Made by a program: the position numbers and the translations under genes. Below, in pieces: positions 3,439 to 53,639 of a stretch of DNA of 64,000 bases. Source of the DNA: an uncultured delta proteobacterium (GTDB lineage: Bacteria > Desulfobacterota > Binatia > UBA9968); the NCBI GenBank assembly GCA_963771465.1, contig CAVYTU010000008.1, positions 256,001 through 320,000 on the forward strand. The letters run 5' to 3'. Below the pieces are notes generated by a model. That model saw nothing but the letters and a program-made list of their open reading frames with translations. It was not told where the DNA came from and did not search any database. Within the stretch, counting starts at the first letter, position 1; each line of letters opens with the position of its first letter.

Positions 3439-4473
3439 CTAATCCCTGACCTTTACCTTGTCAAGGTAGCGACGCTCTCGGTCGGTCATCCATTGCGCGA
3501 TGATTGCAATTAACTTTTCAGGATCGAGACCGGTTAAGCAAGCGTGGTGTGGACAACTCGTCATCGTCACGTGCGAACAGGGCGAACAATCGATAGCGCG
3601 TCTGACAACGGCCACTTGTCTACCCCGCGGCGCCCACTGGTGCGGATCGCTCGGGCCGAACAATGCAATCGTCGGCACGCCGAGCACCGCGGCCAAGTGT
3701 GTGATGCCGCTATCGTTGCCCAGATAGATATCACCGGCGGCGAGCAAGGCGGCGGCCTGGGATAAATTTAAGCCGCTAGCAACCAGACCATGCCGACGGA
3801 GCTCGTCCACGCCGCCTCTTTCCTGCTCGACAGGACCCAGAAGTAAGATCATCACTCCACCCATACGCAAACGCCACCACTGGGCTACCGTAACGAAAAA
3901 CTGCTCCGGCCAATTTTTCGCGCGCGCGCCGCTGCCCGGCGCGACAACCAAAATTCGCCGCTGGGTTAGCGAATGTTTCGTCCAGAAATCCTGCTGCCAC
4001 AGGATCGCTTCCGCGCGAGTTGTGATCATCGGTTCACGGTCGCCAGCCGGCGGCGCAGCGATACAGCGCCGGTAATGATCGGCTTGATGCATGATCTCGC
4101 CAAGCGGACGAAATGGAAAAATCCTGGCTCGATCGTCGGTCGCGGCTTGCAGCTGCGTGACAAACTCCGGTTGCTGACTCCCCATCCACGAATAGACAGC
4201 GGCATAATCCCGGAAATAATTTTTTTGCGCGGCATCGAGTCCGCTGCCCGGGACAAACAGACGGCCGATCTCCGGACTCTCAATGGACCGAACCGTTACA
4301 CCGCAGGGTGCGATCTCGGCGAATGCGCGATGACAATAAAGAACAACTTGAGCGCTTTTCGTGAGCGCTTGCAGTGTCGGTAGGAAGCAAACGAAGTCGC
4401 CAAGCGCGCCGGGAAAAATCACACACACTTTGGAGCAATCCGTTTGGGCAACGGTCCGATCGAGCGATTTCAT
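3439..4473 (-). CDS. Glycosyltransferase family 9 (heptosyltransferase-like)
   Basis: PGALGDF, APGSG..KNWP, YLGNDSGITHLAAVLGVPTIALFGPS motifs; start trimmed to the ATG at 4473 to avoid overlap with cysK. Confidence 0.9.
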   Translation of the reverse strand: MKSLDRTVAQTDCSKVCVIFPGALGDFVCFLPTLQALTKSAQVVLYCHRAFAEIAPCGVTVRSIESPEIGRLFVPGSGLDAAQKNYFRDYAAVYSWMGSQQPEFVTQLQAATDDRARIFPFRPLGEIMHQADHYRRCIAAPPAGDREPMITTRAEAILWQQDFWTKHSLTQRRILVVAPGSGARAKNWPEQFFVTVAQWWRLRMGGVMILLLGPVEQERGGVDELRRHGLVASGLNLSQAAALLAAGDIYLGNDSGITHLAAVLGVPTIALFGPSDPHQWAPRGRQVAVVRRAIDCSPCSHVTMTSCPHHACLTGLDPEKLIAIIAQWMTDRERRYLDKVKVRD

Positions 4474-6294: not shown

Positions 6295-6989
6295 GGCACC
6301 CGCCCATCGCGGATCATCATTTCCGCAAGCCGGACATCTTCTGGCAAGGTAATCTTAAAATTGCTCCGTTCACCTTCCAAGACATAAACCGGCCTGCCGA
6401 ATTGCTCGACGACCATCGCATCGTCAGTAGCTTCCAAGCCTCTGTTTGCCGCCGCTGCGTGCGCCGCAACGATCAGCTCCCGTTTAAAAACCTGTGGCGT
6501 TTGAATCTCCCATAACGAATTGCGGTCTGGCGTGCTTTGAATCAGTCCGCCGCTGCCGACGACTTTGATGGTATCGCGCACCGGCAATCCGGCGACAACC
6601 GCGCCCTTTTCCGCTGCCGCTTCCACTAAACGGTCGATCAGCGCCGCAGAGACAAAAGGGCGGGCGCCGTCGTGAATGACGATAATATCCGCAGCCGCGC
6701 TCACCTTTTCCAAACCCCGCCTTGCAGACTGTTGACGGGTCGACCCTCCGCTCTGCAACACCCATGGACGATTGATTAAGGCCGCATCCCCCCGCAGCAT
6801 CGCATCGCAGCGCTCCAATTCATTTTCAGCAACCACGAGGATGACTTCCTCGACCGCCTTGGCTGCAAACATCCGGTCCAGCGCGCGCAGAACTAATGGC
6901 CGGCCGGCGATTGACAGATACGTTTTAGAAACGTCAGCGCCAATACGTCGGCCCGCGCCAGCGGCAAGAACGATTGCGGTTACATGCAT
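6291..6989 (-). CDS. ispD: 2-C-methyl-D-erythritol 4-phosphate cytidylyltransferase
   Basis: LAAGAGRR, HDGARPF, QTPQVF, TDDA, NFKITLPED; downstream of carD as is typical. Confidence 0.95.
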   Translation of the reverse strand: MHVTAIVLAAGAGRRIGADVSKTYLSIAGRPLVLRALDRMFAAKAVEEVILVVAENELERCDAMLRGDAALINRPWVLQSGGSTRQQSARRGLEKVSAAADIIVIHDGARPFVSAALIDRLVEAAAEKGAVVAGLPVRDTIKVVGSGGLIQSTPDRNSLWEIQTPQVFKRELIVAAHAAAANRGLEATDDAMVVEQFGRPVYVLEGERSNFKITLPEDVRLAEMMIRDGRVP

Positions 6990-7007
6990 GGAAATGCAAC
7001 TCAAAAT

Positions 7008-7039
7008 AAAAGAGCCGAGAGATCGCTCTCGGCTCTTTT
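7008..7039. terminator. Intrinsic terminator hairpin (bidirectional shape) between carD and ispD
   Basis: AAAAGAGCCGAGAG-ATCG-CTCTCGGCTCTTTT perfect inverted repeat with A/T tails. Confidence 0.8.
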
Positions 7040-7063
7040 GGATCGTCGGTGAACAAGCCCTCT

Positions 7064-7546
7064 TTAGTGAGTAAAGATATGGCGCAGCTCTTCCATAATT
7101 TTTTCTTCTGAATGCGACCGCGCGATCGACAACTCCTTGACCAACAAGTTGCGCGCGGTGTCCAACATCTTTCGCTCGCCAAAGGACAACTCTTTATCGC
7201 CCTTGAGAACAAAGAGGTCGCGTAACACTTTGGCAATTTCCAGAATCGAGCCGGTCTTAATTTTTTCCGTGTATTCCCGGTAGCGGCGGTTCCAAGTTTG
7301 CTGGTCGGCCTCAACTTTCTTTTGCCGCAACACTTTGTAAACTTTGGTAACCATGGCCCGATCGATAATTTTTCTCAGGCCAACCGAATCCACGTTATCG
7401 ATAGGAATCATGATCTTCATATCGGTCTCGAGGATTCGCAGCATATAAAACTTTCGCTCTGTTCCCGAAATCGCGTGGCTACGGATTGCTTCAATCTCGC
7501 CCACACCGTGGGCCGGATAAACTACTTTCTCGCCTACTTTAAACAT
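7064..7546 (-). CDS. carD: CarD/CdnL family RNA-polymerase-binding regulator
   Basis: MFKVGEKVVYPAHGVG, TWNRRYREY, LSFGERKML; GAGGAGG RBS before the ATG at 7546. Confidence 0.95.
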   Translation of the reverse strand: MFKVGEKVVYPAHGVGEIEAIRSHAISGTERKFYMLRILETDMKIMIPIDNVDSVGLRKIIDRAMVTKVYKVLRQKKVEADQQTWNRRYREYTEKIKTGSILEIAKVLRDLFVLKGDKELSFGERKMLDTARNLLVKELSIARSHSEEKIMEELRHIFTH

Positions 7547-7944
7547 ACGAACCTCCTCGTAAACCGAAGCTTGCGTCGTTTTGTTCGAATTTTGGCCGAC
7601 AGTGACCGCACGAATTGTCAGGCCGGCTGCTGTCAAGAGTCTGAAGAGCTAAGGAACGATTTTGAAGTAGTGGTAAGTGAGCGAACTGAAGTTTTGCGTG
7701 GAGCAATTTTCTCATGCGGCTGTCTTTCAAACCGAAAACCCGAGCACCAAAAAAATTAGCGGCCATTTGGTGCAGACCGCTAATCCAACGTCAACCTACC
7801 AAATAACTTATACAACGGAGGCCGAGAGGCCGTCAAGAGCGGCGCGAATTTCGGGGAAAGAATAATTCTTTCAATGCTTTAGATATGAAATATCGAGGTT
7901 GCCAAGCAATCCCAATTCAGCCTATTTAGGGACGCTGAAAGACC

Positions 7945-9921: not shown

Positions 9922-11010
9922 CTACTGCTTCGAGGGCGGCGTACCCAAGTGGTTAAGGGAGAGGTCTGCAAAACCTCGATGCAGCGGTTCGAATCCGCTC
10001 GCCGCCTCCAATTTGCACTTGATATCGTTAGAGATTCCCAGTCCGCGACCTCTTCTCACCAAAAAAATGTTCCGGTTTTGTTCCAAGTTCAGCGGCGAAA
10101 CCGCATTGATCGCCTGTTTCAATTCATTGGAAACGACTTGTTCTTTCGCCCGCGCTTCGTTCACTTGAGCTTCGAACCGTTCGGTCAGCTTCGCAACGGC
10201 CAGCGCTTTGTGTTCTTGGGCGAGGTGCGTGTAGCGGTTAGTCATATTGATGGTCTTGTGGCCTAGCAGTTCCTTCACCGTGACCAAATCCACGCCGGCC
10301 ATGACCAAATGCGAGGCAAAGGTATGTCTCAGGTCGTGGAAGCGGAAATCTTCAATTTCCGCCGCTTTGCAGACCTTTTTGAAAGCATCATAGACGGTTA
10401 CCTTGCCGATCTTGTCGCCCCACGGCCACATAAACAGGTAATCGCCGTACCGGTTCTCCGTCAGCCAGTTCAACGCGTCCCTGGTCGGCTGGTTGATCGC
10501 AATGCTCTTAGGCCGAAGGGTTTTGCTTTGCACGATGGATATCACGGCGCGCTCGAAGTTGACGTTCTCCCACTTCATCGCCAACAACTCGCCTTGTCTC
10601 ATGCCGGTGTTGAGCGCCAACGTCGCCAAGGGTAAGAGCCACGGCGAAGTCACCTGCTTTTCACATTCTTGAAGCAACCGTTGAATTTCAGCGCCGCTTA
10701 GAAACCGGGTGCGCTCGCTGGTGATCGTGAAGCGTTTAACCGCGGTTGCCGGGTTCGTCTTGGTCAGATCCAACTCGACCGCTTTCTTGAACATATGCAT
10801 GATGACGGTAAGGCGCCGGTTCACGGTTGCGAGATTGAGCGTTCTCCCCTGCTCCGCTTTCCACTTTTCAATCTGCCAAGTGGTGATATCTGCCAACGGC
10901 GTGTCACCGAACACTGACGCAAATTCTTCAACGATATACTTTTCCGTTCCCCATCCGCGTTTATAGCCGCCGGCAAACTCTTTGTATTTTTCCGCCAGCT
11001 TCGTGTTAGT
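9922..11010 (-). mobile_element. Phage-type tyrosine integrase, N-terminally truncated; its C-terminus reads through tRNA-Cys on the antisense strand
   Basis: TGMRQGEL, FRFHDLRHTFAS, LLGHKT..MT.RYTH catalytic motifs; adjacent to the tRNA 3' end; 5' boundary approximate. Confidence 0.88.
9935..10010 (+). tRNA. tRNA-Cys (GCA)
   Basis: Acceptor GGCGGCG/CGCCGCC-T-CCA, anticodon arm GAGGT-CTGCAAA-ACCTC, T-loop GTTCGAATC. Confidence 0.97.
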
Positions 11011-11255
11011 CGGCATTGTCTGGCATGCACGGGTGATCTCTGGGAATCGCTCCGTGAAAGCGTTACCGCGCCGGGACCAGAGCACAACATTGCCCCGGCT
11101 GCCTTTAGCAACGAGGATCGGTAGCCATCAAGTTTGGCCTCATAGCTCCAGGCGGCGCCGTTGGGCAGCTCACGCACGGCTGAGGCAAGCATTGGCTCAA
11201 TGAATGCCGGCTTCAGTGGGAGCGCTGTAGCAACTTCTTTCGTGAGCACAACCAA
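10995..11255 (-). pseudogene. ATP-dependent DNA ligase (LigD ligase domain) N-terminal fragment, frameshifted and fused to the integrase
   Basis: FIEPMLAS...W.YEAKLDGYR (motif I KxDG), frameshift, then V.LWSRRGNAFTERFPEI; stops before the DGE motif. Confidence 0.8.
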
Positions 11256-11732
11256 TTAACCTTAACGGGCAGGAACTATCGCCGCAAGCGGGTCAAGCTG
11301 ACTCTGGCGTACTGCTACTCTCAACCCGCCAATGTGATTGAACCGTAGCGTCGTACTGTTCAATCCTCTGATATGCGTGGCGAGTTTGCCGAGCTATACC
11401 GCGGGCTGATACCTGGATAACCCGCCGCATGAGCAGCGTTTGCCCCCGAAATGATTGCAAGGTGAAGCGAGTTAATGGATATTGCAGTCTGATATGACTC
11501 CAATTTTTATGAGGTCCAGGATAACCCGCCGGAAGAGCGAATGTTGAGGCTGGATTTCGTTCTCTTGCGCACAAACCAAATTAGGTCGATTAGCCGCGAT
11601 ATCTCCTCAGTGTCGGCGTCAACGATCACAGTCATGGGTTTAGGATTGGGTCTTTTGGGCATTGTCGGTTGAGCTTCTTTTCATCGTAGAAATGGCCGCC
11701 GATCGGTTCGTCGGTCTTCTTCTCATGAGCGG

Positions 11733-12122
11733 CTAAAATTTTTCAATCAGCCAGGTTACAGCGGACTTTGAATCGTAAAAGGCGGCAACCTTGCAGCCCC
11801 GGTTCGATAGAGAGGCGGCTAGCAGTGTGAGTGGAATGCGCTGCTTCATCTGGGGGGTCGAGACCAAAGCAATTTTGGGATTGATGGGCAATAGGTCGGG
11901 AGTGATTGCACTCACGAAGGCTTTGATGTCCATGGGGTCTAGATCGTAGGTGGCATCGACGAGATCGATCAGCACCTTGGAATCGGAAAGCGACGCGGTT
12001 ATCTTCCCTACTTTGCTAAACATCTGCTTGAATCCATCGATGATGTCGACGAACCCGCGGACGATCAGAATGACGTGATCGCCGCGCTCGGGCCAGTGAT
12101 ATAATTTTACCTGGTAGTTCAT
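11733..12122 (-). CDS. Hypothetical STAS/SpoIIAA-like small protein
   Basis: KVLIDL, KIALVS, VAAFYDSKSAVTWL pattern; GAGGAG RBS. Confidence 0.6.
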   Translation of the reverse strand: MNYQVKLYHWPERGDHVILIVRGFVDIIDGFKQMFSKVGKITASLSDSKVLIDLVDATYDLDPMDIKAFVSAITPDLLPINPKIALVSTPQMKQRIPLTLLAASLSNRGCKVAAFYDSKSAVTWLIEKF

Positions 12123-12222
12123 GATTTACTCCTCGCTACCAGATAGATAACGCTCCGCGCGGTTTTGGTCTTGACACTAAACGACAGTCAATTGACACCT
12201 GGAACCAATCGGCGCTAAGGAA

Positions 12223-12462
12223 GTGGCGAAGGAACTCGCACGTGCACGCAAACCCATGATTTCCTTGGCCATGACCAAGGGGCTCGTCGAAGCGATCGCC
12301 GGCAGAGGCGTCAGTCCGGAGCCGATCCTGCGCGAGTTCGGACTCGATCCTTCCAACTTGATCGATCCTGAAGGCTTTATTGCCACCGCAAAAGTGGCAC
12401 TGCTCTTGGAGGAAGCCGCGCGCGCCACCGGCGATGACTTTTTCAGACTGCATTTCGGTGCA
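12223..12462 (+). pseudogene. AraC-family regulator N-terminal (ligand-binding) fragment
   Basis: GV.PEPILREFGLD...L.DPEGFI....LLEEAARATGDDFF.LHFG; no HTH follows. Confidence 0.65.
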
Positions 12463-12688
12463 GGCTTGCGGCGAGCACCCTCTTCTTATGAGGGTTCACC
12501 TTGACGATGGTCCAGACCGGAAGCAAACTGTTGCCGAGTTTTTTGCCGAAGCTTCCGTGCCGCCGCAGCTTTTGGCGATTCGAGGACATGATGCGCTATG
12601 TCTAAAAACGGGTAAGAAGTTTAATTTAGAAAGCGATGACCAACTGTTTCTCGTGCCGACAACCTTCGTCGAAAAGCGATTGAGTTGA
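12460..12688 (+). pseudogene. Fragment of a small hypothetical protein (CGEHPL..HLDDGPDRKQ..ALCLKTG)
   Basis: Protein-like reading frame abutting the AraC fragment, with no clear start. Confidence 0.35.
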
Positions 12689-12767
12689 CACCGGGCTTGA
12701 GATATCGCCCCGATCAGAATATAGGCGATATAGATGAAAACGGCGAAATCAAATTCTCTGGCACTCA

Positions 12768-12950
12768 TTGATAGGTGAACGCATGTTCGACTCGGCGGGA
12801 CAAATCAGCGATCGACTATTATTTCTCAGACGACTCCGCGAACTAACCGCAGAGGGGATCGAGCAACAGTTTGCCGATCAACAGCAAGCGTGGAAGCTAC
12901 TGCTCGAAGAAGAAAAACCGAGCGACCATCGAAAGAATCGCGACGTGTAA
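12768..12950 (+). CDS. Small hypothetical protein
   Basis: 60 aa ORF with helical composition; no motif recognised. Confidence 0.3.
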   Translation: MIGERMFDSAGQISDRLLFLRRLRELTAEGIEQQFADQQQAWKLLLEEEKPSDHRKNRDV

Positions 12951-31438: not shown

Positions 31439-32223
31439 ATGAAATTGAAAGACCAAGTCGCACTGATCATCGGCGGCGCCCGCGGCATTGGTGAGACCAT
31501 TGCGCACACTTTTTCTAACGAAGGCGCCAGCATCGCGCTCGTCGATTTGGCAAAGATGAAGGCTGAGCTTAACGGGGTCGTTCAAGCTGTCAATCAAAAA
31601 GGTGGCAAAGCCTGCGCCATCACCGCCGATTGCAGCGACGACCGACAGGTGAACCACTTGGTTGACGAAACCGTGCGCCGTTTCGGCAAGATCGATGTCT
31701 TAATCAACAGCGCCGGCTTCCGCGGCCCGCTCGTGCCGTGACCGAAATCAGCGAAAAAGAATTTGACGACGTGATCTTGTACAACCTCAAGCTAGTGTTT
31801 CTTTGCTGCCGCGCGGTGTTGAAGCAAATGGTCAAACAGAAGAGCGGCAGCATCGTCAGTATCTCCGGCACCGCCGGCAGAGAAGGCATGGCCATGCGCG
31901 GTTCCCTCTGCGCCGCCAAGTGGGGTGTGGTCGGCTTGACCCAAACCATCGCCAAAGAATACGGTCCTCATGGCATCAGAGCCAACATCATCTGCCCCGG
32001 CGGCATGGACGAACCCGATCTGCGCGAGATGTACGCCGAGCGCGCCAAAAACTTGGGCATGACCTTCAAAGAATTAGAGAATCAAATCCTCGCCCTCACG
32101 CCGCTGCGCAAGTACGCAAAACACGAGGAAGTCGCCAACGCCGCGCTATTCCTCGCTTCGAGCGACTCATCGCACACCACCGGTGAATCGCTGAATGTTT
32201 CGGGCGGACGGTTGATGAGCTAA
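31439..32223 (+). CDS. SDR family oxidoreductase, split by a single frameshift near 31737 (error or pseudogene)
   Basis: GGARGIG and INSAG in the first ORF continue as VTEIS..LCAAKWG..TTGESLNVSGG in the second. Confidence 0.85.
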
Positions 32224-43117: not shown

Positions 43118-44125
43118 TTAGTTTTTAAAAACTTTGTCGATAAAACCGCTCTTGTCCAACTCACGCACGATGGACTCGTCGACCATGTCCTCGAAGCGTA
43201 GTTGCGCGCCGGGTTTGCGCGCGGTCGCTATCGCCTCGCGGATCTGAACTTCCACCCCGGGCCGGGTCACCAGCGGCACCGCGTCGTAAAGTTTAGCGCT
43301 CGCCGTGTAGGCCGCTTCCAGATAATCCTCATTGTTAGTCCTTGCGTATTTCGCCATGATCTTCTTGCTCTCGACTTTGCGCGTTTTAACGAAGTGCACC
43401 GCTTCGATATGCGCCATGATTACTTTTCTGACGGTTTCTCGATTCTTCTGCAAGTAAACCTTCGTCGTCGCCGCGCAGATGTAGGGAAACTCAAAGCGCT
43501 GTTTAAAATCCGCCGTGCTGATGAGAATCCTGAAGGGCATCCCTTTAGTCAGATGAATGATGCCTGGAGGCGACGGGAAACCCGCGATGCGACCGACGCG
43601 AAACGCCGCGGCACGCTCCGACGATCCGCCGACTTGCATGATCGGCACTTGCTTGTCGGGCTCCAATCCCAAGCCGCGCAGCAGTGCCCGCGCCGCCACG
43701 TCGGAGGCGCTGCCGAGACGGCTGATGCCGATACTTTTGCCCTTCAGTTCCTCCGCCGATTTTATCGATTCGTTGACGACCAACTCGTACGGCAAGGAAT
43801 TGAGATAGCAGGAGACCATGGCGATCTGTGCGCCGGCCAACACCGCGTTCGCGATCGCACCTCCCGACACGTTGGCAGCATGGACATCGCCAGCCAGGAG
43901 ACTCGTCAAACTGGTCGTCGTGCTGGGAATAAACAGCAGTTCGGCGTCTAGACCGTATTTCTTATAAAACCCCAAATCCTGCGCCAGAAACCACACCGCA
44001 TTGCTGGTCTCCAACGCACTGTGTGACAAGCGTATCTTCTCCTGGCCCAAAGCGTGGCCAAAAAGACCGGCCGTGACAAACAACAATAGACCGCTGAGAA
44101 GATTCATCGGCCGCGAAACTTTCAT
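43118..44125 (-). CDS. ABC substrate-binding protein (SsuA/NMT1-like)
   Basis: Signal peptide, G.YKKYGLD, LKGKSIGISRLGS, LDKSGFID. Confidence 0.88.
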   Translation of the reverse strand: MKVSRPMNLLSGLLLFVTAGLFGHALGQEKIRLSHSALETSNAVWFLAQDLGFYKKYGLDAELLFIPSTTTSLTSLLAGDVHAANVSGGAIANAVLAGAQIAMVSCYLNSLPYELVVNESIKSAEELKGKSIGISRLGSASDVAARALLRGLGLEPDKQVPIMQVGGSSERAAAFRVGRIAGFPSPPGIIHLTKGMPFRILISTADFKQRFEFPYICAATTKVYLQKNRETVRKVIMAHIEAVHFVKTRKVESKKIMAKYARTNNEDYLEAAYTASAKLYDAVPLVTRPGVEVQIREAIATARKPGAQLRFEDMVDESIVRELDKSGFIDKVFKN

Positions 44126-44203
44126 AGGTCCTCCTTTTGAGAGCTGCGCTGTGGACCGTAACCAAGATGGTTTGAGTGTTGTACTTAACTGGTAAAGAAT
44201 CCT

Positions 44204-44515
44204 CTAGCGCCACGCGGCATCGCTTGGAATAATATTCTTGCCGAAACGGCGTTCCGCCGGCGCCGCGATCCAGTCTTTGGTTTTCTCCGCGTAGTACTTG
44301 AAATGCGGCGACTCGCGATGCGCCGCTAGCGCTGCCTCGTCCCTGTAGACCTCGTAAAAATAGAAACGGTACGGATCATCGCGGTCCTGGATAACATCGA
44401 AGCGCAAACAGCCCGGCTCATCCTTTTCGGAATGCTCCGCGTCGTGGCGCACCACGTCCAAAAACTCCCCGACGTGTTCCGGTTTCACTTGAATCGTGAC
44501 ATGCAGAATCACCAT
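44204..44515 (-). CDS. Antibiotic biosynthesis monooxygenase / LsrG-like protein
   Basis: EPGCLRFDV, FYEVYRD..ALAAHRESPHF. Confidence 0.9.
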   Translation of the reverse strand: MVILHVTIQVKPEHVGEFLDVVRHDAEHSEKDEPGCLRFDVIQDRDDPYRFYFYEVYRDEAALAAHRESPHFKYYAEKTKDWIAAPAERRFGKNIIPSDAAWR

Positions 44516-44655
44516 GGCGCCTCCTTATTTAATTCGGATTATTCACAATCCAACAGGTTTCTTTGGATATTTAGGAACCGACACCAAGCTTCGGCCAATG
44601 ATTCCGTTAAACTAAGTCCGTCTCTGTGGCACATAGCAAACTATCGTTTAGCGAG

Positions 44656-45300
44656 ATGGACGCAAGAACACAAACAAATTTCTGGGACCGTCGTATCGTT
44701 CCCGCGGCCGCACTGACCGTCTACTTCATCGGTTGCTCGCTCCTTCTCCACCCGTATGACAACCTGCCCTTTGTAGACGATTGAGCCTACGCGTGGAGCG
44801 TCGAACAACTGCTGAAGACCAGAGAGCTACGTATTTCCGACTGGTCGGCTCACTATCCGCTTGCGCAGATTGCATGGGATATCTGTTCCGTTTGCCCTTC
44901 GGTTTTTCCTTTACCGCGCTGCGGGTCTCGACTGTGGTACTGTCCCTTTTGTCAGCCTCGCCAATATTGCGTTTTTCTTTACCCTTGGCATCTGCCGGAC
45001 CGCGCAAGGTATCTGTGGCTGGGGAGCGAGGATCGTTTCACGCGACGCTGTTCGTCGAACGGTTTTGCATAGTCTCTGGTGCTTGAAACGGTGCAGTCTG
45101 CCATTCGCGCATGGATCACACCGTTCTTAACCGGGCGCAAATTTACGGGCTGCGTCAATCTGCTGACGAGAGCCTTCGAGAGGTTTACGCGATCGCTTGG
45201 CTTTGAGCCGCCCGGCCTGTTCCGTCCCGAGCTTCCACCTATTCGGAAGCAAGGCGAGGCCTCCTACGGGTTGTTCGTGCTTCTTAGTCTCGTCGTTTAG
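44656..45300 (+). pseudogene. Membrane glycosyltransferase (GT39/ArnT-like) pseudogene
   Basis: ATG at 44656, ..NLPFVDD*AYAWSV (TGA at 44782 where Trp is expected), frameshift after AQIAW, then FGFSFTALRVST; degenerate afterwards; end approximate. Confidence 0.7.
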
Positions 45301-45328
45301 ACATGTCGATTTTTCGATTACTTATATA

Positions 45329-45341
45329 AATCAAAAGCTTG
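45329..45341 (+). promoter_or_regulatory. IHF binding-site consensus
   Basis: AATCAAAAGCTTG matches WATCAANNNNTTR exactly, with an AT-rich 5' flank. Confidence 0.6.
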
Positions 45342-45360
45342 CGTACCCAGCATCCATTTT

Positions 45361-45502
45361 ACAGCTCTAGAGGTTTGTGTAGACAGCTGTTTTCGCAGGC
45401 CTGGATAAGCTGTATCAAATTAGTAAATCAGCTCTCCACCTATTGCAATGCAGCTGGTTGGCTGATAGAAAGACAGCTCTTAAATAGAATGTTTAGAGCT
45501 GA
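45361..45502. promoter_or_regulatory. Phased array of seven 8-bp palindromic boxes (consensus ACAGCTST), period 22-23 bp
   Basis: AGCT cores start at 45363, 45385, 45408, 45430, 45452, 45475, 45497; spacers are unrelated. Confidence 0.85.
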
Positions 45503-45519
45503 CGGCGAAAGATCGTAGG

Positions 45520-46630
45520 ATGAAACTTACTTTTCCTGTCATAAGAGGAAGCATGGGTAGGCGAGAGTATTATTCGCTCCTGGTTCCGCTTTCAGAGATT
45601 CCTCATTTATTCAAATTTAACGATTGGGCAGGATGTACTCCGGAATTGCAGGCGCAAAGGGTGCTGAATAAGGCAAGGGTTCCGGATATCACGAACTACA
45701 TACTTGAAAATGATGATGGGTTTTTGTTTTCATCTATCACCGCTTCCTACTCTTGTCCCGTAAAGTTCACCTCTTCAGCAGAGTACGCCGACGTTGGCAC
45801 TTTAGAGATGGACTTCGAAAACCTGGAGCTTATTATCAACGATGGCCAGCATCGGTGCGCGGCGATTGCTGCGGCACTCAAAGAGAATCCTGCGCTTGGG
45901 AAGGAAAAAATCTCGGTGCTTCTCTTTGAGACGGAAAGTATGGAACGGCTTCAGCAGATGTTCTCAGATTTAAATCGATTCGTGCAGCAGACGTCAAAAT
46001 CGCTAGGGATGCTCTATGATCGTCGAGATAACCTTTCCGCGCTCACAATGGAGTTGGCCGAGCAGGTCGACGTATTCCGAGACATGGTGGAGAAAGAGAA
46101 AGTAACGATTCCGCGGAGGTCTCCCAAGCTTTTTACCATCTCGGCTTTATACGAAGCGAATGAAGAATTGCTGGGTAAAAAAATCGCTGAACAGGGATCA
46201 CCGGTGTACGGAGAGATTCTCAAGACGGCTGTCGATTACTGGACAGAGCTTTCGCAGATCATTGGTGACTGGCAAAAAGTCAAAAATGGCGAACTTAGCG
46301 CTTCCGAACTCCGCCAAGAGAAGATCAATACTCATGCGGTTGTTTTGCGTGCGCTCGGAGGGCGTTGGCAAAACGTTGCTCGAAAAATATCCTGAGAACT
46401 GGCGGGGAAAACTCAAACTTCTCGAAAGGCTTGATTGGCGGAAAACCGTAGATAGTAGCGCGAATCCTCTGTGGGATGCCGTGTGTATCACCGCGGGTTC
46501 AGTCGTCTCCAACAGACAGGCACGAGCAGCTACTTTCGCGGTCTTGTTACGAGAAATCGGCGAATCGCCAAACGGAAAAGTGACACACAAAGAATCTGCG
46601 GAGGTGACTAGTGCGCAGGCGACTGAATAA
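45520..46630 (+). CDS. dndB: DndB / DGQHR-domain protein, one frameshift near 46360
   Basis: TFPVIRG.MG.REYY, AQRVLNKARVP.I..YI, FSSITAS, INDGQHR, QQMFSDLNR, SPKLFT; C-terminus (LDWRK..NPLW...C) in the next frame. Confidence 0.88.
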
Positions 46631-48586
46631 TCGAAACCACCGTAAAAATTCTACCGTTGCCGATCGGCAGGGAGCTGCCGGGGGCGCTCTCAGCGTGGTT
46701 AGTGCCGATGCTGCGGAGGATCGATCTACAACTCGCCTGTGGCAGTTACTTCCAACTGCATGGAACTTAATCCGACCCTACTGGTCCTCGGAGGACCGCT
46801 GGGCGGCGTGGGGGCTGCTCGTCGTCGTGGTCGGACTCACCCTCGGGATGGTTCATATCAGTGTGCTCTTTAGTTATTGGAATAAAGCATTCTTCAGCGC
46901 CCTTGAGAATAGAGACCAAACCGCCTTTCTCCATCAACTGCTCCGCGTGTCGTGGCTAATCGGTATCTATCATCGTCTTCGCCGTCTATCAGCTTTACCT
47001 GAATCAGATGCTCGAGATCCGCTGGCGGCGCTGGCTTACCGAGCGATACCTTCGCGCTTGGCTGGCCGATGGAGCTTATTATCGGATGCAGCTCGACGCG
47101 CGTGACACCGACAATCCCGACCAACGCATCGCTGAAGACGTTCACCTGCTGGTTTCCCATACCCTCACTCTTCTTATGGGAGGATTGCGGGCGGTGGTGT
47201 CGATGGCTGCTTTTATGGGAATCCTCTGGTCGCTCTCCGGGACGTTCACGGTCCCGCTTGGCTGGTTCTCTCTCAGTTTGCCGGGCTACATGGTGTGGGC
47301 GGCCATGTTATACGCTATCGGCGGGACTTGGCTCACCGACCGGATCGGTCGCCCACTCGTGGGCCTAAATTTCGACAAGCAGCGTTGTGAAGCCGACTTC
47401 CGGTTCAGCCTAGTGCGCTTTCGCGAGAACGCCGAGGGAGTCGCGCTCTACCGCGGCGAGGCGGACGAGTTACGTTCTTTCCGCGAACGGTTCGAAGCGG
47501 TAGTGACCAATTGGTGGGGCATCATGCGCCGACATAAGCGGTTGACTTGCTTCACTTCAGGCTACGGCCAAGGGGCCTGGATTTTCCCGTCCGTCATGGC
47601 GGCGCCGCGTTACTTCCGAGGCGAGATTGCGCTCGGAGGGCTCATGCAGACGATCGGGGCTTTCAGCCAGCTACAGGATTCGCTAAGCTTTTTTATCGAC
47701 TCTTATAAAGTGATTGCTGAATGGTGCTCGGTGGTCGAGAGGCTCTCCGGGTTCGAACGCGCACTCGAGCACGTGCTGATTCAGGCGGCGAATGGCGGAG
47801 GCGTCCGCAGTCGATGAGCGGCCAGCGGCTCATTTAGCTGTAGAGGGTGTGGATCTCCATCTGCCTAGTGGTCAGCCGCTCATCGCCAATGTGAATCTCT
47901 CGCTCCAGAGCGGCGACACAGTACTCCTAGGGGGAGCTTCGGGATGCGGCAAGAGTACGCTGGTTCGTGCCATGGCGGGAATTTGGCCTTTTGGCCAGTG
48001 GCGAGATCCGCCGACCGCGTCGGCGCGCGGGTCCTCTTTCTTCCGCAGAGACCTTACCTGCCGATCGGTACACTTCGGGAAGTGGTGAGTTACCCGATGC
48101 CAACGGGTGGGTGTGATGACGCGATACTGCGTGAGGCGCTACTGGCCGTCGGGCTCCCTGGGTTCGCCGAACGGCTTAGCGAGGCTGGCCATTGGGCGCT
48201 CCAACTTTCCCCCGGCGAACAGCAGCGCATCGCCTTTGCCCGCGCGCTGGTACAGAAGCCCGAGTGGCTGTTCCTTGATGAGGCGACCTCGGCAGTCGAC
48301 GAGGCTACAGAGGCGCGTCTTGTATCGACTGGTGCGCGAGCGGCTTGCCGGCACGACTGTATTCAGCATCGGTCATCGGGCGACATTGCGTGCGTTCCAC
48401 GCTCGCCAGCTTTTGGTGCGGGCCAACGGGGCAGGGACCTTCCTCGATCGTAGAAGTGACCGCCGTGCCGGAATCGGCTCGAAGCAATTCCGCCACTTCC
48501 GATGCACGACAAAGTCGCTGCAATGGCTGGGTAATAATCGCGACCGAACTATAACGTCTAACGATCTCCGGTCGTTACCACGTTAA
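46611..48586 (+). pseudogene. YddA/SbmA-BacA-like fused ABC transporter with multiple frameshifts
   Basis: PYWSSE, IRWRRWLT, DNPDQRIAED, EADFRFSL.RFRENAE, GASGCGKST, LSPGEQQR, LDEATSA spread across at least 5 frame segments. Confidence 0.85.
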
Positions 48587-48879
48587 TGAAATCCGTCGAG
48601 ATATGCGACGATAAGTGTATTTGAATGCTTAGGCGTGCGGCTGGCTCTAAATGTTACTGAGCACTTCTCAAGATCTTTCCCCGAGCATCTGATCGCGCAG
48701 TCACACTGATATTCAGGCAGGCGTTGGGTGCAGTTGTTTTGCCAAAGCACTGTGCTCGTACCTTGCGCGTGACAGTTTTCGCAAATATTCAAAAACTCTC
48801 TCCCGGCAATCCAGCTTTGAAACATTGACTGGAGGGTTTTACAATGTCCCCAGCCCATCAGCCAATCTGAAGTTGGAGG

Positions 48880-50592
48880 TCAAGGCGGAAGTTGGATGCC
48901 TGCCTTCGCGTACGATTCTTCAAGCTTTGCCAAACCTTCTCTATCTTCGGTGAGATCGTAGACAAAAATAGAGTATCCGATCTTGGCTATCGGCTGTCGC
49001 GTCCACAACCAGCGAAATAGCGGGTAATAAGCGGTCGAAACATCTTGCAAGTTGTAAACGCTGATTGCCAGAATTTTGCGCGGGGCTGTGGCCGGAACTT
49101 TGTCCGCGGGCGGCGGCCATTCTAAAGGCCACGCTCCGGGCACGTATTGATAACGAATGCCGTAATAGGATGGAGGAGCGGTACCGAAGTATGACAAATA
49201 GATCATCGGAAGATTGTTTTTATCGATATAGGCCTTGAGGCCTTCCAGGTCCTGGCCCCAGTCGAGATTCGAATCGCTCAGGTAGCGATAACCTTCTTCG
49301 GGTCCCCCAACGAGTTCATTGAAGTAAGCCAGCTGATGCGGTGCAACCCGGAGCGAAGAGATAGCCGTCAAGACCACTGGGATCCCGATAAGCACGGGTG
49401 CGAGCCAGGGGCGGTGGAGTCGGACCGTTGCAAGTCGCGACGCGAGGACGAACAAAAGGGGATACACAGGAAGAAGATGGCGCAGACCGATACTGATCTT
49501 CGACTGGGTCATAACGGTAAAGAAAATGACCACTGGCAAGAGAAGAACAATGGCGTCACGCCGCCTGAGAGGAGATCCGGCTCTATAAAATGCAAAGGAC
49601 GCAAATATTAGAGCAAGACTGCCGATTGGCGTCTTGATTAGAAAAGAGATTATGAAATAGCTCCACCAGCCCTGGTAGGAATATTCTCCCAAGAAAAAAG
49701 CCAGCAGGCCTGCTTGGGCCAAACTTAAAAACTCAAAAAGGCCGGATAGCCACGGCTGAAATCCCTGAAAAAAGTAAGCTGACGGAACCGTAAGGAAGGC
49801 AAGAAAAAGTATGAGAGAAAAGACCGCTGCTGCCTGAAAGAGCTTGTGCCGTAGCTCGTCTTCATTCTGTTTTAAGGGCAAGAGAGTATAAGGGTTCCGA
49901 TCGATTATAAGAGGTAGAGCAACGATCAAAGCGAGGGTGGGAATAAGGAGAATCGCTGAATATTTAGAGAGTAAGGCCATGCCTGTAGAAATGCCGGTGG
50001 CGACCAGAACCCACCATCGGGGTGAATTGAGATACTCCCAGAGAAGGTAGAGAGCCAAGAAAATAAATAGAGTGACGCCGATGTCGGTAGTTATGAGAGA
50101 GGAATGCGCGATGAGAATCGGCTCCAAAGACGCAAGCGCCATGGCCAGCATCGCTGCGCGATTACCCCAAAGTCGGTAGGCCCACCATCCGGTGAGCACT
50201 AAGAGGACGCCGCCGAGAAACAAATTAGGCAAGCGACTCAGAGCAAGGATTCGATCAGCCGGAACTGCGGATTTGTACAGGAAGTCACGCCCAATGAGAT
50301 AACCATATCGGTCGTGCCAGAGTTGTGGATCGGGATTGAAAGGGAGCCGATGGACTAGAAAGAGCGGGAGTGCGAAAAGCTCTTTGAGCAGCGGCGGGTT
50401 TTGCGGCTCGAGGCGAAAGTCTTTCTTTGTAAGATAGGAGTACCCTGCAGCGAGATGCATGGCCTCGTCAACCGTTTGAGAGTTGGCGCGAATGAAGAAA
50501 GTTCCCTGCACGAAAAAACCGAGCAGTATCAATACCGCTCCAATGAGCGCGGATTTAGTTGTGAATGAAATCAAAGTACTCGTGCATGCCAT
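48880..50592 (-). CDS. Membrane glycosyltransferase, GT39/PMT-ArnT-like (copy 1)
   Basis: TVDEAMHLAAGYSY, PPLLK, AHSSLITTD, SKYSA, DSNLDWGQD. Confidence 0.88.
   Translation of the reverse strand: MACTSTLISFTTKSALIGAVLILLGFFVQGTFFIRANSQTVDEAMHLAAGYSYLTKKDFRLEPQNPPLLKELFALPLFLVHRLPFNPDPQLWHDRYGYLIGRDFLYKSAVPADRILALSRLPNLFLGGVLLVLTGWWAYRLWGNRAAMLAMALASLEPILIAHSSLITTDIGVTLFIFLALYLLWEYLNSPRWWVLVATGISTGMALLSKYSAILLIPTLALIVALPLIIDRNPYTLLPLKQNEDELRHKLFQAAAVFSLILFLAFLTVPSAYFFQGFQPWLSGLFEFLSLAQAGLLAFFLGEYSYQGWWSYFIISFLIKTPIGSLALIFASFAFYRAGSPLRRRDAIVLLLPVVIFFTVMTQSKISIGLRHLLPVYPLLFVLASRLATVRLHRPWLAPVLIGIPVVLTAISSLRVAPHQLAYFNELVGGPEEGYRYLSDSNLDWGQDLEGLKAYIDKNNLPMIYLSYFGTAPPSYYGIRYQYVPGAWPLEWPPPADKVPATAPRKILAISVYNLQDVSTAYYPLFRWLWTRQPIAKIGYSIFVYDLTEDREGLAKLEESYAKAGIQLPP
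48899..49475. repeat. ~577-bp near-identical direct repeat (second copy 50778-51354)
   Basis: By-eye alignment at offset 1879 shows about 4 substitutions. Confidence 0.9.
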
Positions 50593-50758: not shown

Positions 50759-52444
50759 TCAGGGCGGCAGTGTAATCCCTGCCTTCGCGTACGATTCTTC
50801 AAGCTTTGCCAAACCTTCTCTATCTTCGGTGAGATCGTAGACAAAAATAGAGTATCCAATCTTGGCTATCGGCTGTCGCGTCCAGAGCCAGCGAAATAGC
50901 GGGTAATAAGCGGTCGAAACATCTTGCAAGTTGTAAACGCTGATTGCCAGAATTTTGCGCGGGGCTGTGGCCGGAACTTTGTCCGCGGGCGGCGGCCATT
51001 CTAAAGGCCACGCTCCGGGCACGTATTGATAACGAATGCCGTAATAGGATGGAGGAGCGGTACCGAAGTATGACAAATAGATCATCGGAAGATTGTTTTT
51101 ATCGATATAGGCCTTGAGGCCTTCCAGGTCCTGGCCCCAGTCGAGATTCGAATCGCTCAGGTAGCGATAACCTTCTTCGGGTCCCCCAACGAGTTCATTG
51201 AAGTAAGCCAGCTGATGCGGTGCAACCCGGAGCGAAGAGATAGCCGTCAAGACCACTGGGATCCCGATAAGCACGGGTGCGAGCCAGGGGCGGTGGAATC
51301 GGACCGTTGCAAGTCGCGACGCGAGGACGAACAAAAGGGGATACACAGGAAGAATATGACGCAGACCGATGTTCACTTTCGCTTGGCTCGTAGCAACGAA
51401 GATAAACACCACGGGTACTAATAGTAAAATCGCTTCGCGCCTGCCAAGTCGGGTGCCGACGCGGTAAAAAGCTAGCGACGCTGCGATCAGTATGAGACTG
51501 CCGATCGGTGTTTTAATGAGAAACGATACTATAAAATAGTTCCACCACCCTAGGTAAGAGGATTCTCCGAGGAAGAAGGCGAGCCGTCCCGCATGGGCCA
51601 AGCTCATAAACTGCTCCAAACCGGAGATCCAAGGAGTAAAGCCTTGAAATAAGTAGGCTGGAGGAATCGTTACGACGGCAAATGATAGAATCACAAAAAA
51701 CACGGCTGCTGCCTGAAAGAACTTGTGTCGTGGCTCATTTTTATTCCGTTCCAAGGGCAAGAGAGTATAAGTGTTGATTAAGAACAATAATGTAATGATC
51801 AGAGCAATTATCGGAATGAGAAGAAGCGCTGAAAATTTAGAGACAAGCGCCAAGCCTGTACAAATGCCCGTGAGCGCTAAAACCCACCATTTGGGTTGAT
51901 TTAAATACTCCCAAAGAAAATAGAGCGCGAGAAAAATGAAGAGGGCGACACCAAGATCGGTAGTAATGAGGGAGGAATGAGCGACGAGATTCGGTTCCAA
52001 AGACGTAAGCGCCATGGCTAGTATGGCGGCGCGGCTTCCCCATAGACTGTAGGCCCACCAACCCACCGCTAGTACCAACACGCCTCCGAGTAATAAATTA
52101 GGGAAGCGACTTACAGCAAGTATTCCATCCGCAGAAAGCGTGGATTTGTACAGGAAGTCCTGTCCGATGATGTAACCGTCCGCGCCACGCCACTGTTGTG
52201 GATTTGGATTGAAGGCGGGCCTGTAAATTATGAAAAGAGGAAGCGCTTGAAGTTCTTTTATGAGGGGGGGATGCTCAGGATCAAGACGAAAGTCTCTTCT
52301 GTCAAGATAAGAATACCCTGCTGCGATATGGATTCCCTCGTCGTAGGTTGGCGAGTTGGTCCAGATGAAAAAGGCGCCCTGCGCGAGGAATACGACGAGA
52401 AAAAGTGTTCCGGCGCCGGCAAATTTAATTGTATTCAGACGCAA
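50759..52444 (-). CDS. Membrane glycosyltransferase, GT39/PMT-ArnT-like (copy 2)
   Basis: PTYDEGIHIAAGYSY, EHPPLIK, DSNLDWGQD; start approximate. Confidence 0.88.
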   Translation of the reverse strand: MRLNTIKFAGAGTLFLVVFLAQGAFFIWTNSPTYDEGIHIAAGYSYLDRRDFRLDPEHPPLIKELQALPLFIIYRPAFNPNPQQWRGADGYIIGQDFLYKSTLSADGILAVSRFPNLLLGGVLVLAVGWWAYSLWGSRAAILAMALTSLEPNLVAHSSLITTDLGVALFIFLALYFLWEYLNQPKWWVLALTGICTGLALVSKFSALLLIPIIALIITLLFLINTYTLLPLERNKNEPRHKFFQAAAVFFVILSFAVVTIPPAYLFQGFTPWISGLEQFMSLAHAGRLAFFLGESSYLGWWNYFIVSFLIKTPIGSLILIAASLAFYRVGTRLGRREAILLLVPVVFIFVATSQAKVNIGLRHILPVYPLLFVLASRLATVRFHRPWLAPVLIGIPVVLTAISSLRVAPHQLAYFNELVGGPEEGYRYLSDSNLDWGQDLEGLKAYIDKNNLPMIYLSYFGTAPPSYYGIRYQYVPGAWPLEWPPPADKVPATAPRKILAISVYNLQDVSTAYYPLFRWLWTRQPIAKIGYSIFVYDLTEDREGLAKLEESYAKAGITLPP

Positions 52445-52466
52445 AGGATATACTTTGGAAGGCCAA

Positions 52467-53639
52467 TCAGTTGAACCCCGCCGTCTGCAAGAGCGTTTTA
52501 AGGACGCGGTCGGCAGCGAAGCACTCGCGCGCCACCTCAGCGGCATGGGCGGCCGCTCGCTCGTAATCCGACTCAATTATCTTGACTGCTTCAGCGGCTT
52601 CTTCGACAGTTTGAAACGCGTGTAATCCCGGCCCGAGAGGCAGAACTTCCCCGAAGCCGGTGTCGTGTTCCACAGCGGGTCTCCCGGCGGCCAAGTAACA
52701 GGCGGCGCGATCACTGAACCAGCCGGTTCGCAGTTTGATATTCATTTCTTTCGCCACCGTAAACTCAGCGCGGGAGTTGCATAGATAGTTTCGATATTGC
52801 CAAGGATCGAATGAGACCTCTTCGGGATTGACCAATTTCCAGCCGTGTCCGGAAAGCAAATCGGCGTCTCCCGGGACACTCTGAACGTTCATTGCAAGCT
52901 CGAATGAGGCTCCGGTTCGCGCCGGCAAGGCAAGAAACCCGAGCCATTCGCGGCGTTTTTGCCAGTGAAGAGTCTCGCCTCGATACTTTATGTCGCGACC
53001 CGACGTATTCCAGACACCGACGGTGGTATAGCAAGGTCCCGGCGGCATGGTATTTTTCCAGAGCTTCAGCACTACTGGTTGGCGCGTGGGATACCAGTCC
53101 ATGCCAGCTGTCGGGGTATCAGATCGAAGCGTGCCGATGTTTTCACCGAAAGTGAAAAGCTTGTCATAGCTCTTTAAGAGCTTACGCAGAATGTCATCGC
53201 CATTTACGAGTCTCAACTGTGTATAAGCAGGATCCGAATCGATGTAGATCGACTGTGCGCCTGCTCGCCTCTCGAGTGAGATATCGTTTACATCTCCCAG
53301 GTTGATCAACAGATCCGCCCCACGGAGAAGCTCCTCGGCTAATTTGGCTCCAGGCCCATACCTCACGCCCCGCTGGCTATCTATAAAACACCAGTGATCG
53401 CCAAAGCCGACGCGTTCCAGAAACTCCCCTGCCGTTTTGATTCCGTAATCGTACGAAGGGCCGTACTCTTTAGTGATAGGATTGTACGCCAGGCTGTAAT
53501 GAGCCGTGTCCTCATAGAACCACACGTCATAGCCTAACGATTTGAGGCCTAGGAGATAGTGCGCGGCCTGCCACGCATAGCCGCCGATCGGAAAGCGCAC
53601 CAGGTACCCGGCGAAAACGATTCTCAAATTACGGTTCAT
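52467..53639 (-). CDS. Putative GT-B glycosyltransferase (paralogue 4)
   Basis: GG..W...HYLLGL..LG.DVWFYED; EFTVAK..GWFSDR..CYLAAGRP....TGF. Confidence 0.8.
   Translation of the reverse strand: MNRNLRIVFAGYLVRFPIGGYAWQAAHYLLGLKSLGYDVWFYEDTAHYSLAYNPITKEYGPSYDYGIKTAGEFLERVGFGDHWCFIDSQRGVRYGPGAKLAEELLRGADLLINLGDVNDISLERRAGAQSIYIDSDPAYTQLRLVNGDDILRKLLKSYDKLFTFGENIGTLRSDTPTAGMDWYPTRQPVVLKLWKNTMPPGPCYTTVGVWNTSGRDIKYRGETLHWQKRREWLGFLALPARTGASFELAMNVQSVPGDADLLSGHGWKLVNPEEVSFDPWQYRNYLCNSRAEFTVAKEMNIKLRTGWFSDRAACYLAAGRPAVEHDTGFGEVLPLGPGLHAFQTVEEAAEAVKIIESDYERAAAHAAEVARECFAADRVLKTLLQTAGFN

Follow-up and report, generated by a model that had tools for sequence, protein, structure and literature searches.

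In Salmonella enterica, DndB (DptB) forms homodimers and footprints a pair of TACG-N10-CGTA palindromes in the promoter of its own gene, within positions -72 to +4, and deletion of dndB raised dndCD transcripts about 15-fold (both from the accessible part of PMC4507180). In vitro binding of ATP and GTP by a DndB-like protein is described in the accessible part of another report (10.1101/2025.10.10.680097). Reviews of Dnd systems use the term "solitary" for dndBCDE without dndFGH, and a comparative Dnd paper, as far as its accessible text goes, treats DndB only inside Dnd systems. Here, we analyze a dndB-like gene in a 64,000-nucleotide stretch of DNA from an uncultured delta proteobacterium (Desulfobacterota; Binatia; GenBank assembly GCA_963771465.1, contig CAVYTU010000008.1, positions 256,001 to 320,000 of the forward strand), referred to below as the window. 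The promoter region of this gene carries seven AGCT-centered boxes, an array that had been noticed in an earlier reading of the sequence (the original prediction). The array is apparently an undescribed gene-control element: we found no published description of it in the literature on DndB and DGQHR proteins, on AGCT or helically phased operators, or on ParB-like defense repressors.

The locus resembles the Salmonella system in its protein family, in having sites in the gene's own promoter region, and in the 4-bp palindrome-forming cores of those sites. It differs in that the window lacks dndCDE and carries seven S-AGCT-S units (S, C or G), which span about 140 bp with a 22-bp phase. KorB, another relevant repressor, acts from single 13-bp palindromic sites, slides on DNA as a clamp, and works at a distance. 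As with KorB of plasmid RK2, a ParB-family CTPase (PMC11790492, accessible part), the proposed repressor is a ParB-superfamily nucleotide-binding protein. As in the KorB/KorA pair, one clade of relatives has a small helix-turn-helix (HTH) partner encoded after the gene; its match to KorA is below the cutoff. Unlike KorB, the locus has a phased multisite array on the promoter itself. Promoter-embedded centromeres of the ParR, omega, and ParG types have short helically phased repeats, form a cooperative complex, and autoregulate the adjacent operon. Iterons recur every 22 to 23 bp, and some use integration host factor (IHF). The array is like these centromeres and iteron arrays in geometry only, with many short repeats at helical phasing. 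It is unlike them in its chromosomal context, in the 6 bp kept per 22-bp unit, and in that no partition NTPase or Rep protein was found in the window; the proposed binder has a ParB/Srx fold, whereas centromere proteins have a ribbon-helix-helix. Finally, a regulator gene that heads varied defense genes is also the layout seen with the BrxR/CapW WYL regulators and RptR (accessible parts of PMC9122601, PMC9122588, PMC11662680, and PMC12255303). BrxR and CapW, however, have a winged-HTH-WYL fold instead of ParB/Srx and a single inverted repeat instead of a multibox phased array, and the cargo in the window is a transporter rather than an evident defense gene.

Results

A phased AGCT array precedes an orphan dndB-like gene

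The AGCT cores start at window positions 45363, 45385, 45408, 45430, 45452, 45475, and 45497, which gives successive spacings of 22, 23, 22, 22, 23, and 22 bp. The last box, taken as an 8-mer, ends at 45502, leaving 17 bp to the ATG at 45520. All of these values, as well as the seven 8-mers themselves, agree with the original prediction. The boxes and the gene behind them are as follows.

45362..45367, no strand: box 1, CAGCTC; slot -80 (all slots are relative to the start of the -35 hexamer)
45384..45389, no strand: box 2, CAGCTG; slot -58
45407..45412, no strand: box 3, AAGCTG; slot -35; 5' flank A, as in 6 of 10 register-A rows
45429..45434, no strand: box 4, CAGCTC; slot -13, immediately 5' of the -35 hexamer
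45451..45456, no strand: box 5, CAGCTG; slot +9, within the 17-bp promoter spacer
45474..45479, no strand: box 6, CAGCTC; slot +32, at the inferred transcription start (about 45478)
45496..45501, no strand: box 7, GAGCTG; slot +54, in the leader; reverse complement of box 6
45520..46630, plus strand: orphan DndB-family gene (PF14072, E 1.6e-88), DGQHR motif at residues 107-112; frameshifted

AGCT occurs 208 times in the 64-kb window, which has a GC content of 0.55. When all 4-mers were chained across the whole window (periods of 8 to 40, tolerance of +1), the seven AGCT formed the longest chain, and the runner-up had four members. The pattern AGCTS-N15-17-SAGCTS-N15-17-SAGCTS was matched five times, always inside 45408-45501, and never in 100 dinucleotide-preserving shuffles. 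The boxes had been described as palindromic; this holds for their AGCT cores, but only box 2 is a perfect 8-bp palindrome (ACAGCTGT), and the conserved unit is S-AGCT-S. One extra AGCT, at 45336 within an IHF-like site, is out of phase, at a distance of 27 bp from box 1.

As had been anticipated, the array escapes a tandem-repeat finder: Tandem Repeats Finder, at a minimum score of 30, reported nothing across 45200-45650. Rfam gave no match at E values up to 1 in 44000-47000. A CRISPR or tandem-repeat array, which would need unique spacers between repeats at least about 20 nt long or head-to-tail units at least about 70% alike, was considered and rejected, as only 6 bp is kept per unit and Tandem Repeats Finder returned nothing.

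The array recurs in distant bacteria while its spacers drift

A protein search with an E-value limit of 0.001 returned 3,549 proteins; among the best 120 of these, identity was 79-93%, and most had a length of 358-369 amino acids (aa). Scanning one genome per species gave 40 loci, of which 38 were usable, since two (L007 and L035) came without upstream sequence. The original prediction had named the presence of phased arrays upstream of homologues as a check, and the arrays were there: a chain of four to seven AGCT at 21-23 bp preceded the same gene in 28 of the 38 loci. One more locus (L017) had a chain of three, and three others (L010, L022, and L034) had boxes in phase with one gap of 44-45 bp, so that phased boxes of some kind occur in 32 of 38. 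Every chain of at least three AGCT lay at -190 to -18 from the dndB-like ATG, with none elsewhere in 370,959 bases of loci. Loci with at least four boxes were labelled Candidatus Binatota, Acidobacteriota, Pseudomonadota, Nitrospirota, Chloroflexota, Gemmatimonadota, and Methylomirabilota, and one further such record Thermodesulfobacteriota, which makes about eight phylum labels altogether. The same arrangement in such distant bacteria indicates a real gene-control element.

We collected 164 boxes from the chains of at least four; collection fixed the AGCT core and left the flanks free. Position -1 was C or G in 91% of the boxes of the Binatia group and in 98% of the others, and position +4 was C or G in 100% of both, while all spacer positions carried 0.5 bit or less. 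As the C/G flanks are kept and the spacers drift, the conserved unit is S-AGCT-S. Among 135 box-to-box steps, 110 were of 22 bp, 22 of 23 bp, and 3 of 21 bp; the mean of 22.14 bp corresponds to 11.07 bp per turn. In the Binatia group, the middle of the spacer is enriched in A/T (85% at +11 and 86% at +13). An alignment of 13 Binatia-type sequences has near-invariant AGCT columns and promoter with variable spacers between them. In six of nine Binatia-type loci, the boxes persist although BLASTN homology to the window does not reach upstream of the ATG; the coding DNA of those loci is 76-82% identical to that of the window. Even an orphan on a plasmid of Neorhizobium sp. SOG26 (L041), 49% identical, has seven in-phase boxes with one degenerate slot.

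The array is thus genuine, a cis-element under selection that goes with the adjacent DndB-like gene, and selection acts on the boxes alone. The small size of the core is the one feature that would suit a chance pattern or the relic of a decayed tandem repeat. The shuffles, the chain search, the exclusivity to this gene, and the conservation across phyla with unrelated spacers speak against this explanation, which the comparative data refute and to which we give almost no credence.

Box positions are fixed relative to a conserved promoter

Four features upstream of the gene concern its transcription.

45443..45448, plus strand: -35 hexamer TTGCAA, homologous to the relatives' TTGACA
TG at 45463-45464, then TAGAAA at 45466-45471, plus strand: extended -10 (consensus TG-n-TAgAaA), 17 bp past the -35
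45462..45490, plus strand: alternative promoter-like match CTGATA-N17-TAGAAT, a 9/12 match in a promoter scan
45329..45341, plus strand: IHF-consensus site AATCAAAAGCTTG, a perfect WATCAANNNNTTR match with an A/T-rich block 5' of it

In nearly all loci, a TTGACA-type -35 with a -10 located 16-18 bp further is embedded in the array. The promoter put forward originally, CTGATA-N17-TAGAAT, does match in 9 of 12 positions, but its -10 is not kept in relatives (caggat in L012 and caaatt in L003 and L011 at that place); the conserved promoter lies one unit upstream, with box 5 in its spacer. A simple promoter scan omits the TTGCAA/TAGAAA promoter because its last base is A, not T. From the position of this -10, we placed the transcription start at about 45478. 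The column consensus of the -35 region in 13 register-A sequences is TATTGAcA, with weaker -35 versions in the window (TTGCAA), L012 (TTGCGA), and L001 (TTGAAA).

Measured from the first base of the -35, the boxes of the Binatia clade stand at -79, -57, -35, -13, +9, +31/32, and +53/54, with the core consensus CAGCT-N7-TATTGAcA-N3-AGCTG-N6-TG-n-TAgAaA. The other clades have a different register (-49, -27, -5, +17, +39, and sometimes +61), with the pattern AGCTcTTGACA...AGCTgnTAnnnT. Because the boxes stand in fixed register with a conserved promoter, we read the array as a multisite operator. Four boxes in the window and two to three in the other clades lie upstream of the -35; these cannot be transcribed, and so the element, as a whole array, acts on DNA.

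The IHF-consensus match just 5' of the array, which had been part of the original prediction, was found again; it is one of two perfect WATCAANNNNTTR matches in the window. Of the 12 Binatia-type loci, 6 share a perfect match on the same strand, placed between -191 and -221 relative to the ATG; the other clades have none, and the background is 3 matches in about 347 kb of loci. Several of the remaining Binatia-type loci have near-matches at the same place, judged by eye. The predicted IHF-like site thus looks like a clade-specific accessory.

A possible second layer at the leader-proximal boxes

The boxes might instead act as RNA, by pairing in the 5' leader to control stability or translation. 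Folding 45355-45522 as RNA gave a z-score of -2.47, with 2 of 200 shuffles folding as well, and boxes 6 and 7 paired as CAGCUCU/AGAGCUG. In 17 leaders of other clades, the boxes around a TGAGCG-loop-CGCTCT hairpin covary, as CAGCTC..GAGCTG in four loci and as GAGTTC..GAACTC in four; Verrucomicrobia loci keep GAGTTC..GAACTC around the hairpin. However, AGCU pairs with itself, so that the z-score arises largely, and the box-box stems partly, by construction. The four window boxes (two to three in other clades) upstream of the -35 are untranscribed, there was no Rfam match, and pairing would explain at most the last two boxes. We therefore regard control through RNA as improbable for the array as a whole. 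At its last two boxes, an RNA stem or a symmetric DNA site may form a second layer.

The hairpin leaders have a common layout of box, about 16 nt, TGAGCG-loop-CGCTCT, about 20 nt, box, and ribosome-binding site, about 20-80 nt upstream of the ATG. They were seen in L019, L021-L024, L027, L029, L032, L034, L037, L039, and L041 and in the box-less L025, L026, L033, L038, and L040. Two loci (L021 and L024) show the compensatory change GAACG/CGTTC, and L041 has an in-phase AGCT inside the hairpin loop. The hairpin had no Rfam match (seven related loci gave only a tRNA) and is absent from the window's clade.

The gene belongs to an orphan DndB subfamily

The adjacent gene is an orphan dndB, as proposed originally. 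Its first part (45520-46395) matches PF14072 with 297.5 bits (cutoff 29.1), and Pfam scans and tblastn found no dndC, dndD, or dndE in the 64 kb. Using queries from L042-L044, tblastn likewise found no match to DndA, DndC, DndD, or DndE in the window or in 41 loci, with about 5 kb covered on each side where the contig allows. Conversely, none of nine canonical-type dndB loci (eight with annotated dndC/dndD and one unannotated, from Arthrobacter) had a phased array or any periodic 4-mer chain above three. This control set includes a match from a phage record (H41/L049, a Salmonella contig). The uncoupling from DNA sulfur modification suggested earlier is thus supported from both sides. The TACG-N10-CGTA motif, with up to one mismatch, does not occur in 44806-49774; in the whole window it was found 13 times versus 15.85 expected.

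In a quick maximum-likelihood tree, the 32 orphan rows fell on one side and the three canonical dndB outgroup rows on the other; the branch between them has an SH-aLRT of 100 but is long, so a long-branch warning applies. Intact relatives score from 327.5 (P0002, just below the equivalog cutoff of 328) to 348.4 on TIGR03233, and the family has a PADLOC DndB match at E 8e-104. Residues N107, D108, G109, Q110, H111, and R112, which contain the DGQHR motif of the ParB/Srx-type nucleotide-binding domain, are invariant in sets of 18 and of 29 aligned sequences, the window's included. Compared with 17 relatives, the window's protein leaves the family alignment after residue 281, and the last 60-odd PF14072 profile positions lie in another frame (46160-46630). 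The closest locus, L001, is 96% identical over residues 1-281, and relative to it the window has one extra base near 46360.

The downstream gene overlaps in the window's clade and changes elsewhere

The operon continues with one further gene.

46611..48540, plus strand: BacA/SbmA-like ATP-binding cassette (ABC) transporter gene (ABC_membrane_2 and ABC_tran), GTG start; broken here

Its GTG, at 46611, comes before the end of the dndB-like gene, giving a 20-nt overlap with the stop. In the relatives, the transporter gene is intact (612-677 aa) and overlaps by 1-23 nt, by 20 nt in most. The window's copy has a frameshift at 46971, 14 further internal indel sites, and a scrambled stretch at 47807-47869, all relative to L001. 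Third codon positions account for most substitutions relative to L001 (45 of 64 in the dndB-like gene and 135 of 216 in the ABC gene), which implies that the breaks are recent or are assembly errors. Operon breaks were also seen in L012 and L014, related loci from long-read-style metagenome-assembled genomes (MAGs). Elsewhere in the window, an adh_short gene is split by another frameshift (31439-31741 and 31738-32223, profile positions 1-87 and 94-187), making assembly error plausible for the operon as well. The window's ABC gene would be a pseudogene of very recent origin, unless an assembly error at this place accounts for its breaks.

The original prediction had also proposed control or partitioning of a neighboring glycan island. 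This was not borne out: the conserved partner is the overlapping ABC transporter gene, and the PMT-family genes are convergent, on the other strand. These are two tandem glycosyltransferase paralogues (48880-50592 and 50759-52576), both of which align to one gene of L009 and L012; a PMT-family gene adjoins the module in eight related loci. At the other end of the window, its sole tRNA gene (tRNA-Cys, 9935-10010, plus strand) overlaps the 3' end of a phage-integrase-family open reading frame (ORF; 9922-11085, minus strand), beyond which lie four small ORFs without a Pfam match (11293-12768). The region 9922-12768 is probably an integrated element.

Across 40 loci, the genes on both sides of the module vary, with no recurring NTPase neighbor, and the type of cargo tracks clades in the tree. 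An ABC transporter gene stands directly downstream in 12 Binatia-type loci and the window. In seven loci carrying five phylum labels (L013, L015, L016, L018, L020, L031, and L036), the gene is followed by one for a protein of about 780-880 aa and then by a convergent N6/N4-type DNA methylase gene. The roughly 780-aa protein had no match in Pfam (E up to 5), NCBIfam, PADLOC, or the PDB (best solved-structure E value, 0.23); we take its DxGxG- and GxxGxG-like motifs to recall GHKL ATPases. Other downstream genes encode an OLD/AriA-like ATPase (L024), a DUF3892 protein (L027), a PDC-M33A-like protein (L034, whose partners had no Pfam match at E up to 5), and a metallo-beta-lactamase (MBL)-fold protein matching PDC-M48B (L022, E 1e-90). 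The Neorhizobium plasmid copy adjoins TIR-domain and methylase genes. At least nine loci lack a close same-strand partner, having a gap above 100 bp or the next ORF on the opposite strand. On this sequence evidence, the downstream genes vary and often appear defense-like.

Four Acidobacteria loci (L022, L023, L024, and L027) are informative in this respect. Their end branches in the tree are only 0.04-0.06, and they have four different neighbors (L023 has no partner). In five of six pairwise comparisons, their DNA homology extends from about -140 to the stop codon only; the remaining pair, L023 and L027, is homologous for about 300 bp past the stop codon. This looks like cargo swapping behind a fixed module. 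The dndB-like gene has a lower GC content than its flanks in 35 of 37 loci tabulated (43-50% versus 55-64% in the window). No convincing direct or inverted repeats flank the module in 44000-49500, which was inspected for mobile-element ends. Phage records gave 43 matches, all below 60% identity, and none held an orphan-type copy. By record title, the module also occurs in isolates, namely, Bosea spartocytisi SSUT16 (L039) and the Neorhizobium sp. SOG26 plasmid (L041).

The original prediction had offered an operator, a centromere, or an iteron-like array. Only the operator stands, on the strength of the fixed promoter register. A partition centromere or an iteron-type replication origin would accord with the 22-bp period, which fits classical iteron spacing, with the adjoining IHF-type site, and with a protein of the ParB/Srx superfamily. 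On the other hand, Pfam named no ParA-, ParM-, or Rep-type family among 69 greedy-called ORFs in the 64 kb, and the arrays sit on long chromosomal MAG contigs of up to 2.6 Mb. Only a 6-bp unit is conserved and no repeat like a 17-22-bp iteron was found, the fixed register favors transcription control, and the sole plasmid copy has a separate AAA ATPase and ribbon-helix-helix pair elsewhere on its plasmid. We judge a role in partition or replication to be very improbable.

Downstream of the dndB-like gene in three loci lies a gene for an HTH-like protein of 100-117 aa (L030:6107-6460, L037:6122-6424, and L039:6116-6424), placed between a 4-nt overlap and a 2-nt gap after it. The protein carries the invariant stretch GDRQHDIAAWFGVNGGRIAEIA. 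Its match to KorA (PF16509) is subthreshold (E 0.0046; 17.6 bits versus a 26.7-bit cutoff), and the ESM Atlas gave only unnamed clusters and HTH leads below 0.9. In L037, a Rhizobiales isolate, a tRNA gene (4137-4208) lies about 800 bp upstream of the module, and in L039 (Bosea), the second gene of the module is followed, after about 500 bp, by a gene with a Shedu SduA_C domain (6620-7825); these surroundings look like an island-type setting.

Such a small HTH protein, or else a widely conserved host protein, could be the factor that uses the array as its operator. In favor of this, a 6-bp site is generic, the 100-aa partner has an HTH-like motif and the subthreshold KorA match, and box-less Verrucomicrobia relatives show that the gene can exist without the array. 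Yet no other gene is constant on either side of the array, and the HTH-like partner is limited to one clade. The element is found under about eight phylum labels and, within 371 kb, at this gene only, so a host protein would have to be near-universal and still be used nowhere else in the DNA sampled. We consider a different trans-acting factor unlikely, while giving it real weight.

Discussion

We favor, by a modest measure, reading the array as a multisite autoregulatory operator that lies over the promoter of the orphan dndB-like operon and would be bound by the encoded DndB-like protein. The array and the gene are constant and no other neighbor is, which makes autoregulation by the encoded protein the simplest reading; the DndB-like ParB/Srx-fold protein is the likeliest binder. 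From Salmonella DndB, the ATP and GTP binding of a DndB-like protein, and the invariant DGQHR motif, we infer dimers on the boxes, occlusion of the promoter, and an occupancy modulated by nucleotides. DndB-like dimers would bind the palindrome-cored S-AGCT-S boxes, with cooperative contacts across 22 bp, or about two helical turns. Four boxes precede the -35, the fifth falls within the spacer, the sixth coincides with the inferred start site, and the seventh belongs to the leader; the bound array would thus cover about -115 to +25, counted from that start, and would occlude RNA polymerase. The gene itself and its translationally coupled downstream gene, in the window the one for the BacA/SbmA-like ABC transporter, would be autoregulated. 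Nucleotide binding would probably modulate occupancy, and in the Binatia clade, the IHF-type site about 27 bp upstream may bend the DNA and help the complex form. As a matter of general DNA geometry, 11.07 bp per turn exceeds the value of relaxed B-DNA, which suggests untwisting or left-handed wrapping.

Several observations count against an autoregulatory operator bound by the DndB-like protein. The motif of the Salmonella operator, TACG-N10-CGTA, differs from the boxes and does not occur at the array. With only 6 bp, the S-AGCT-S unit carries little information. The C/G flanks have no consistent orientation, alternating in L018 and all direct in L013, L016, and L036, and the boxes of L019, L021, L037, and L039 are palindromic GAGCTC; since flank orientation is not uniform among loci, we do not commit to a head-to-head or a head-to-tail lattice. 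The two promoter-distal boxes tend to be mutual complements, CAGCTC and then GAGCTG in most Binatia-type rows. Six loci (L025, L026, L028, L033, L038, and L040), all labelled Verrucomicrobia or its orders, have no boxes and keep the gene and a TTGACA promoter; in the tree, box loss falls on a single Verrucomicrobia clade (three rows, L025, L033, and L040). The 100-aa HTH-like protein of the alphaproteobacterial clade could be the array binder instead. The DndB-like protein had no relatives among solved structures (best E value, 0.029 by sequence and 0.33 by profile), and the window's own copy of the gene is frameshifted.

The defense-like neighbors also bring up a sentinel, in which the methylation state of AGCT, or foreign AGCT DNA, would switch the promoter by modification or titration. 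Related ParB/DUF262 domains are reported to sense modified DNA in SspE and GmrSD (PMC12065111, accessible part), and DNA methylase genes adjoin the module in seven loci of one clade and on the Neorhizobium plasmid. Neither the window nor the Binatia clade, however, has a methylase next to the module, and AGCT is common in host DNA, as its count in the window illustrates. We think a sentinel of this kind rather improbable.

A bolder proposal, which we put forward tentatively and rank well below the autoregulatory operator, is that the array and gene, about 1.2 kb together, form a self-contained, horizontally mobile switch. A ParB/Srx NTPase would polymerize on a parS-like AGCT platform until a signal releases the promoter and turns the cargo on. 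The signal could be a shift in the nucleotide pool, a change in how AGCT is modified, or foreign DNA entering the cell, and the cargo could be a transporter, an OLD-like ATPase, an MBL nuclease, or the 780-aa protein with its methylase. If true, this would be a new class of defense island controller built on a ParB fold.

DndB is usually seen as an accessory of phosphorothioation, and the large subfamily described here has left that system. It bears a highly unusual cis-element of four to seven tiny palindrome-cored sites around its promoter, found in many phyla, whose geometry predicts a cooperative, possibly DNA-untwisting or DNA-wrapping assembly of a ParB/Srx-fold NTPase. Since the module is present in isolates, experiments are feasible. 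If the varied downstream genes are indeed cargo, the subfamily would represent a new class of regulators for defense-type genes and a compact natural switch.

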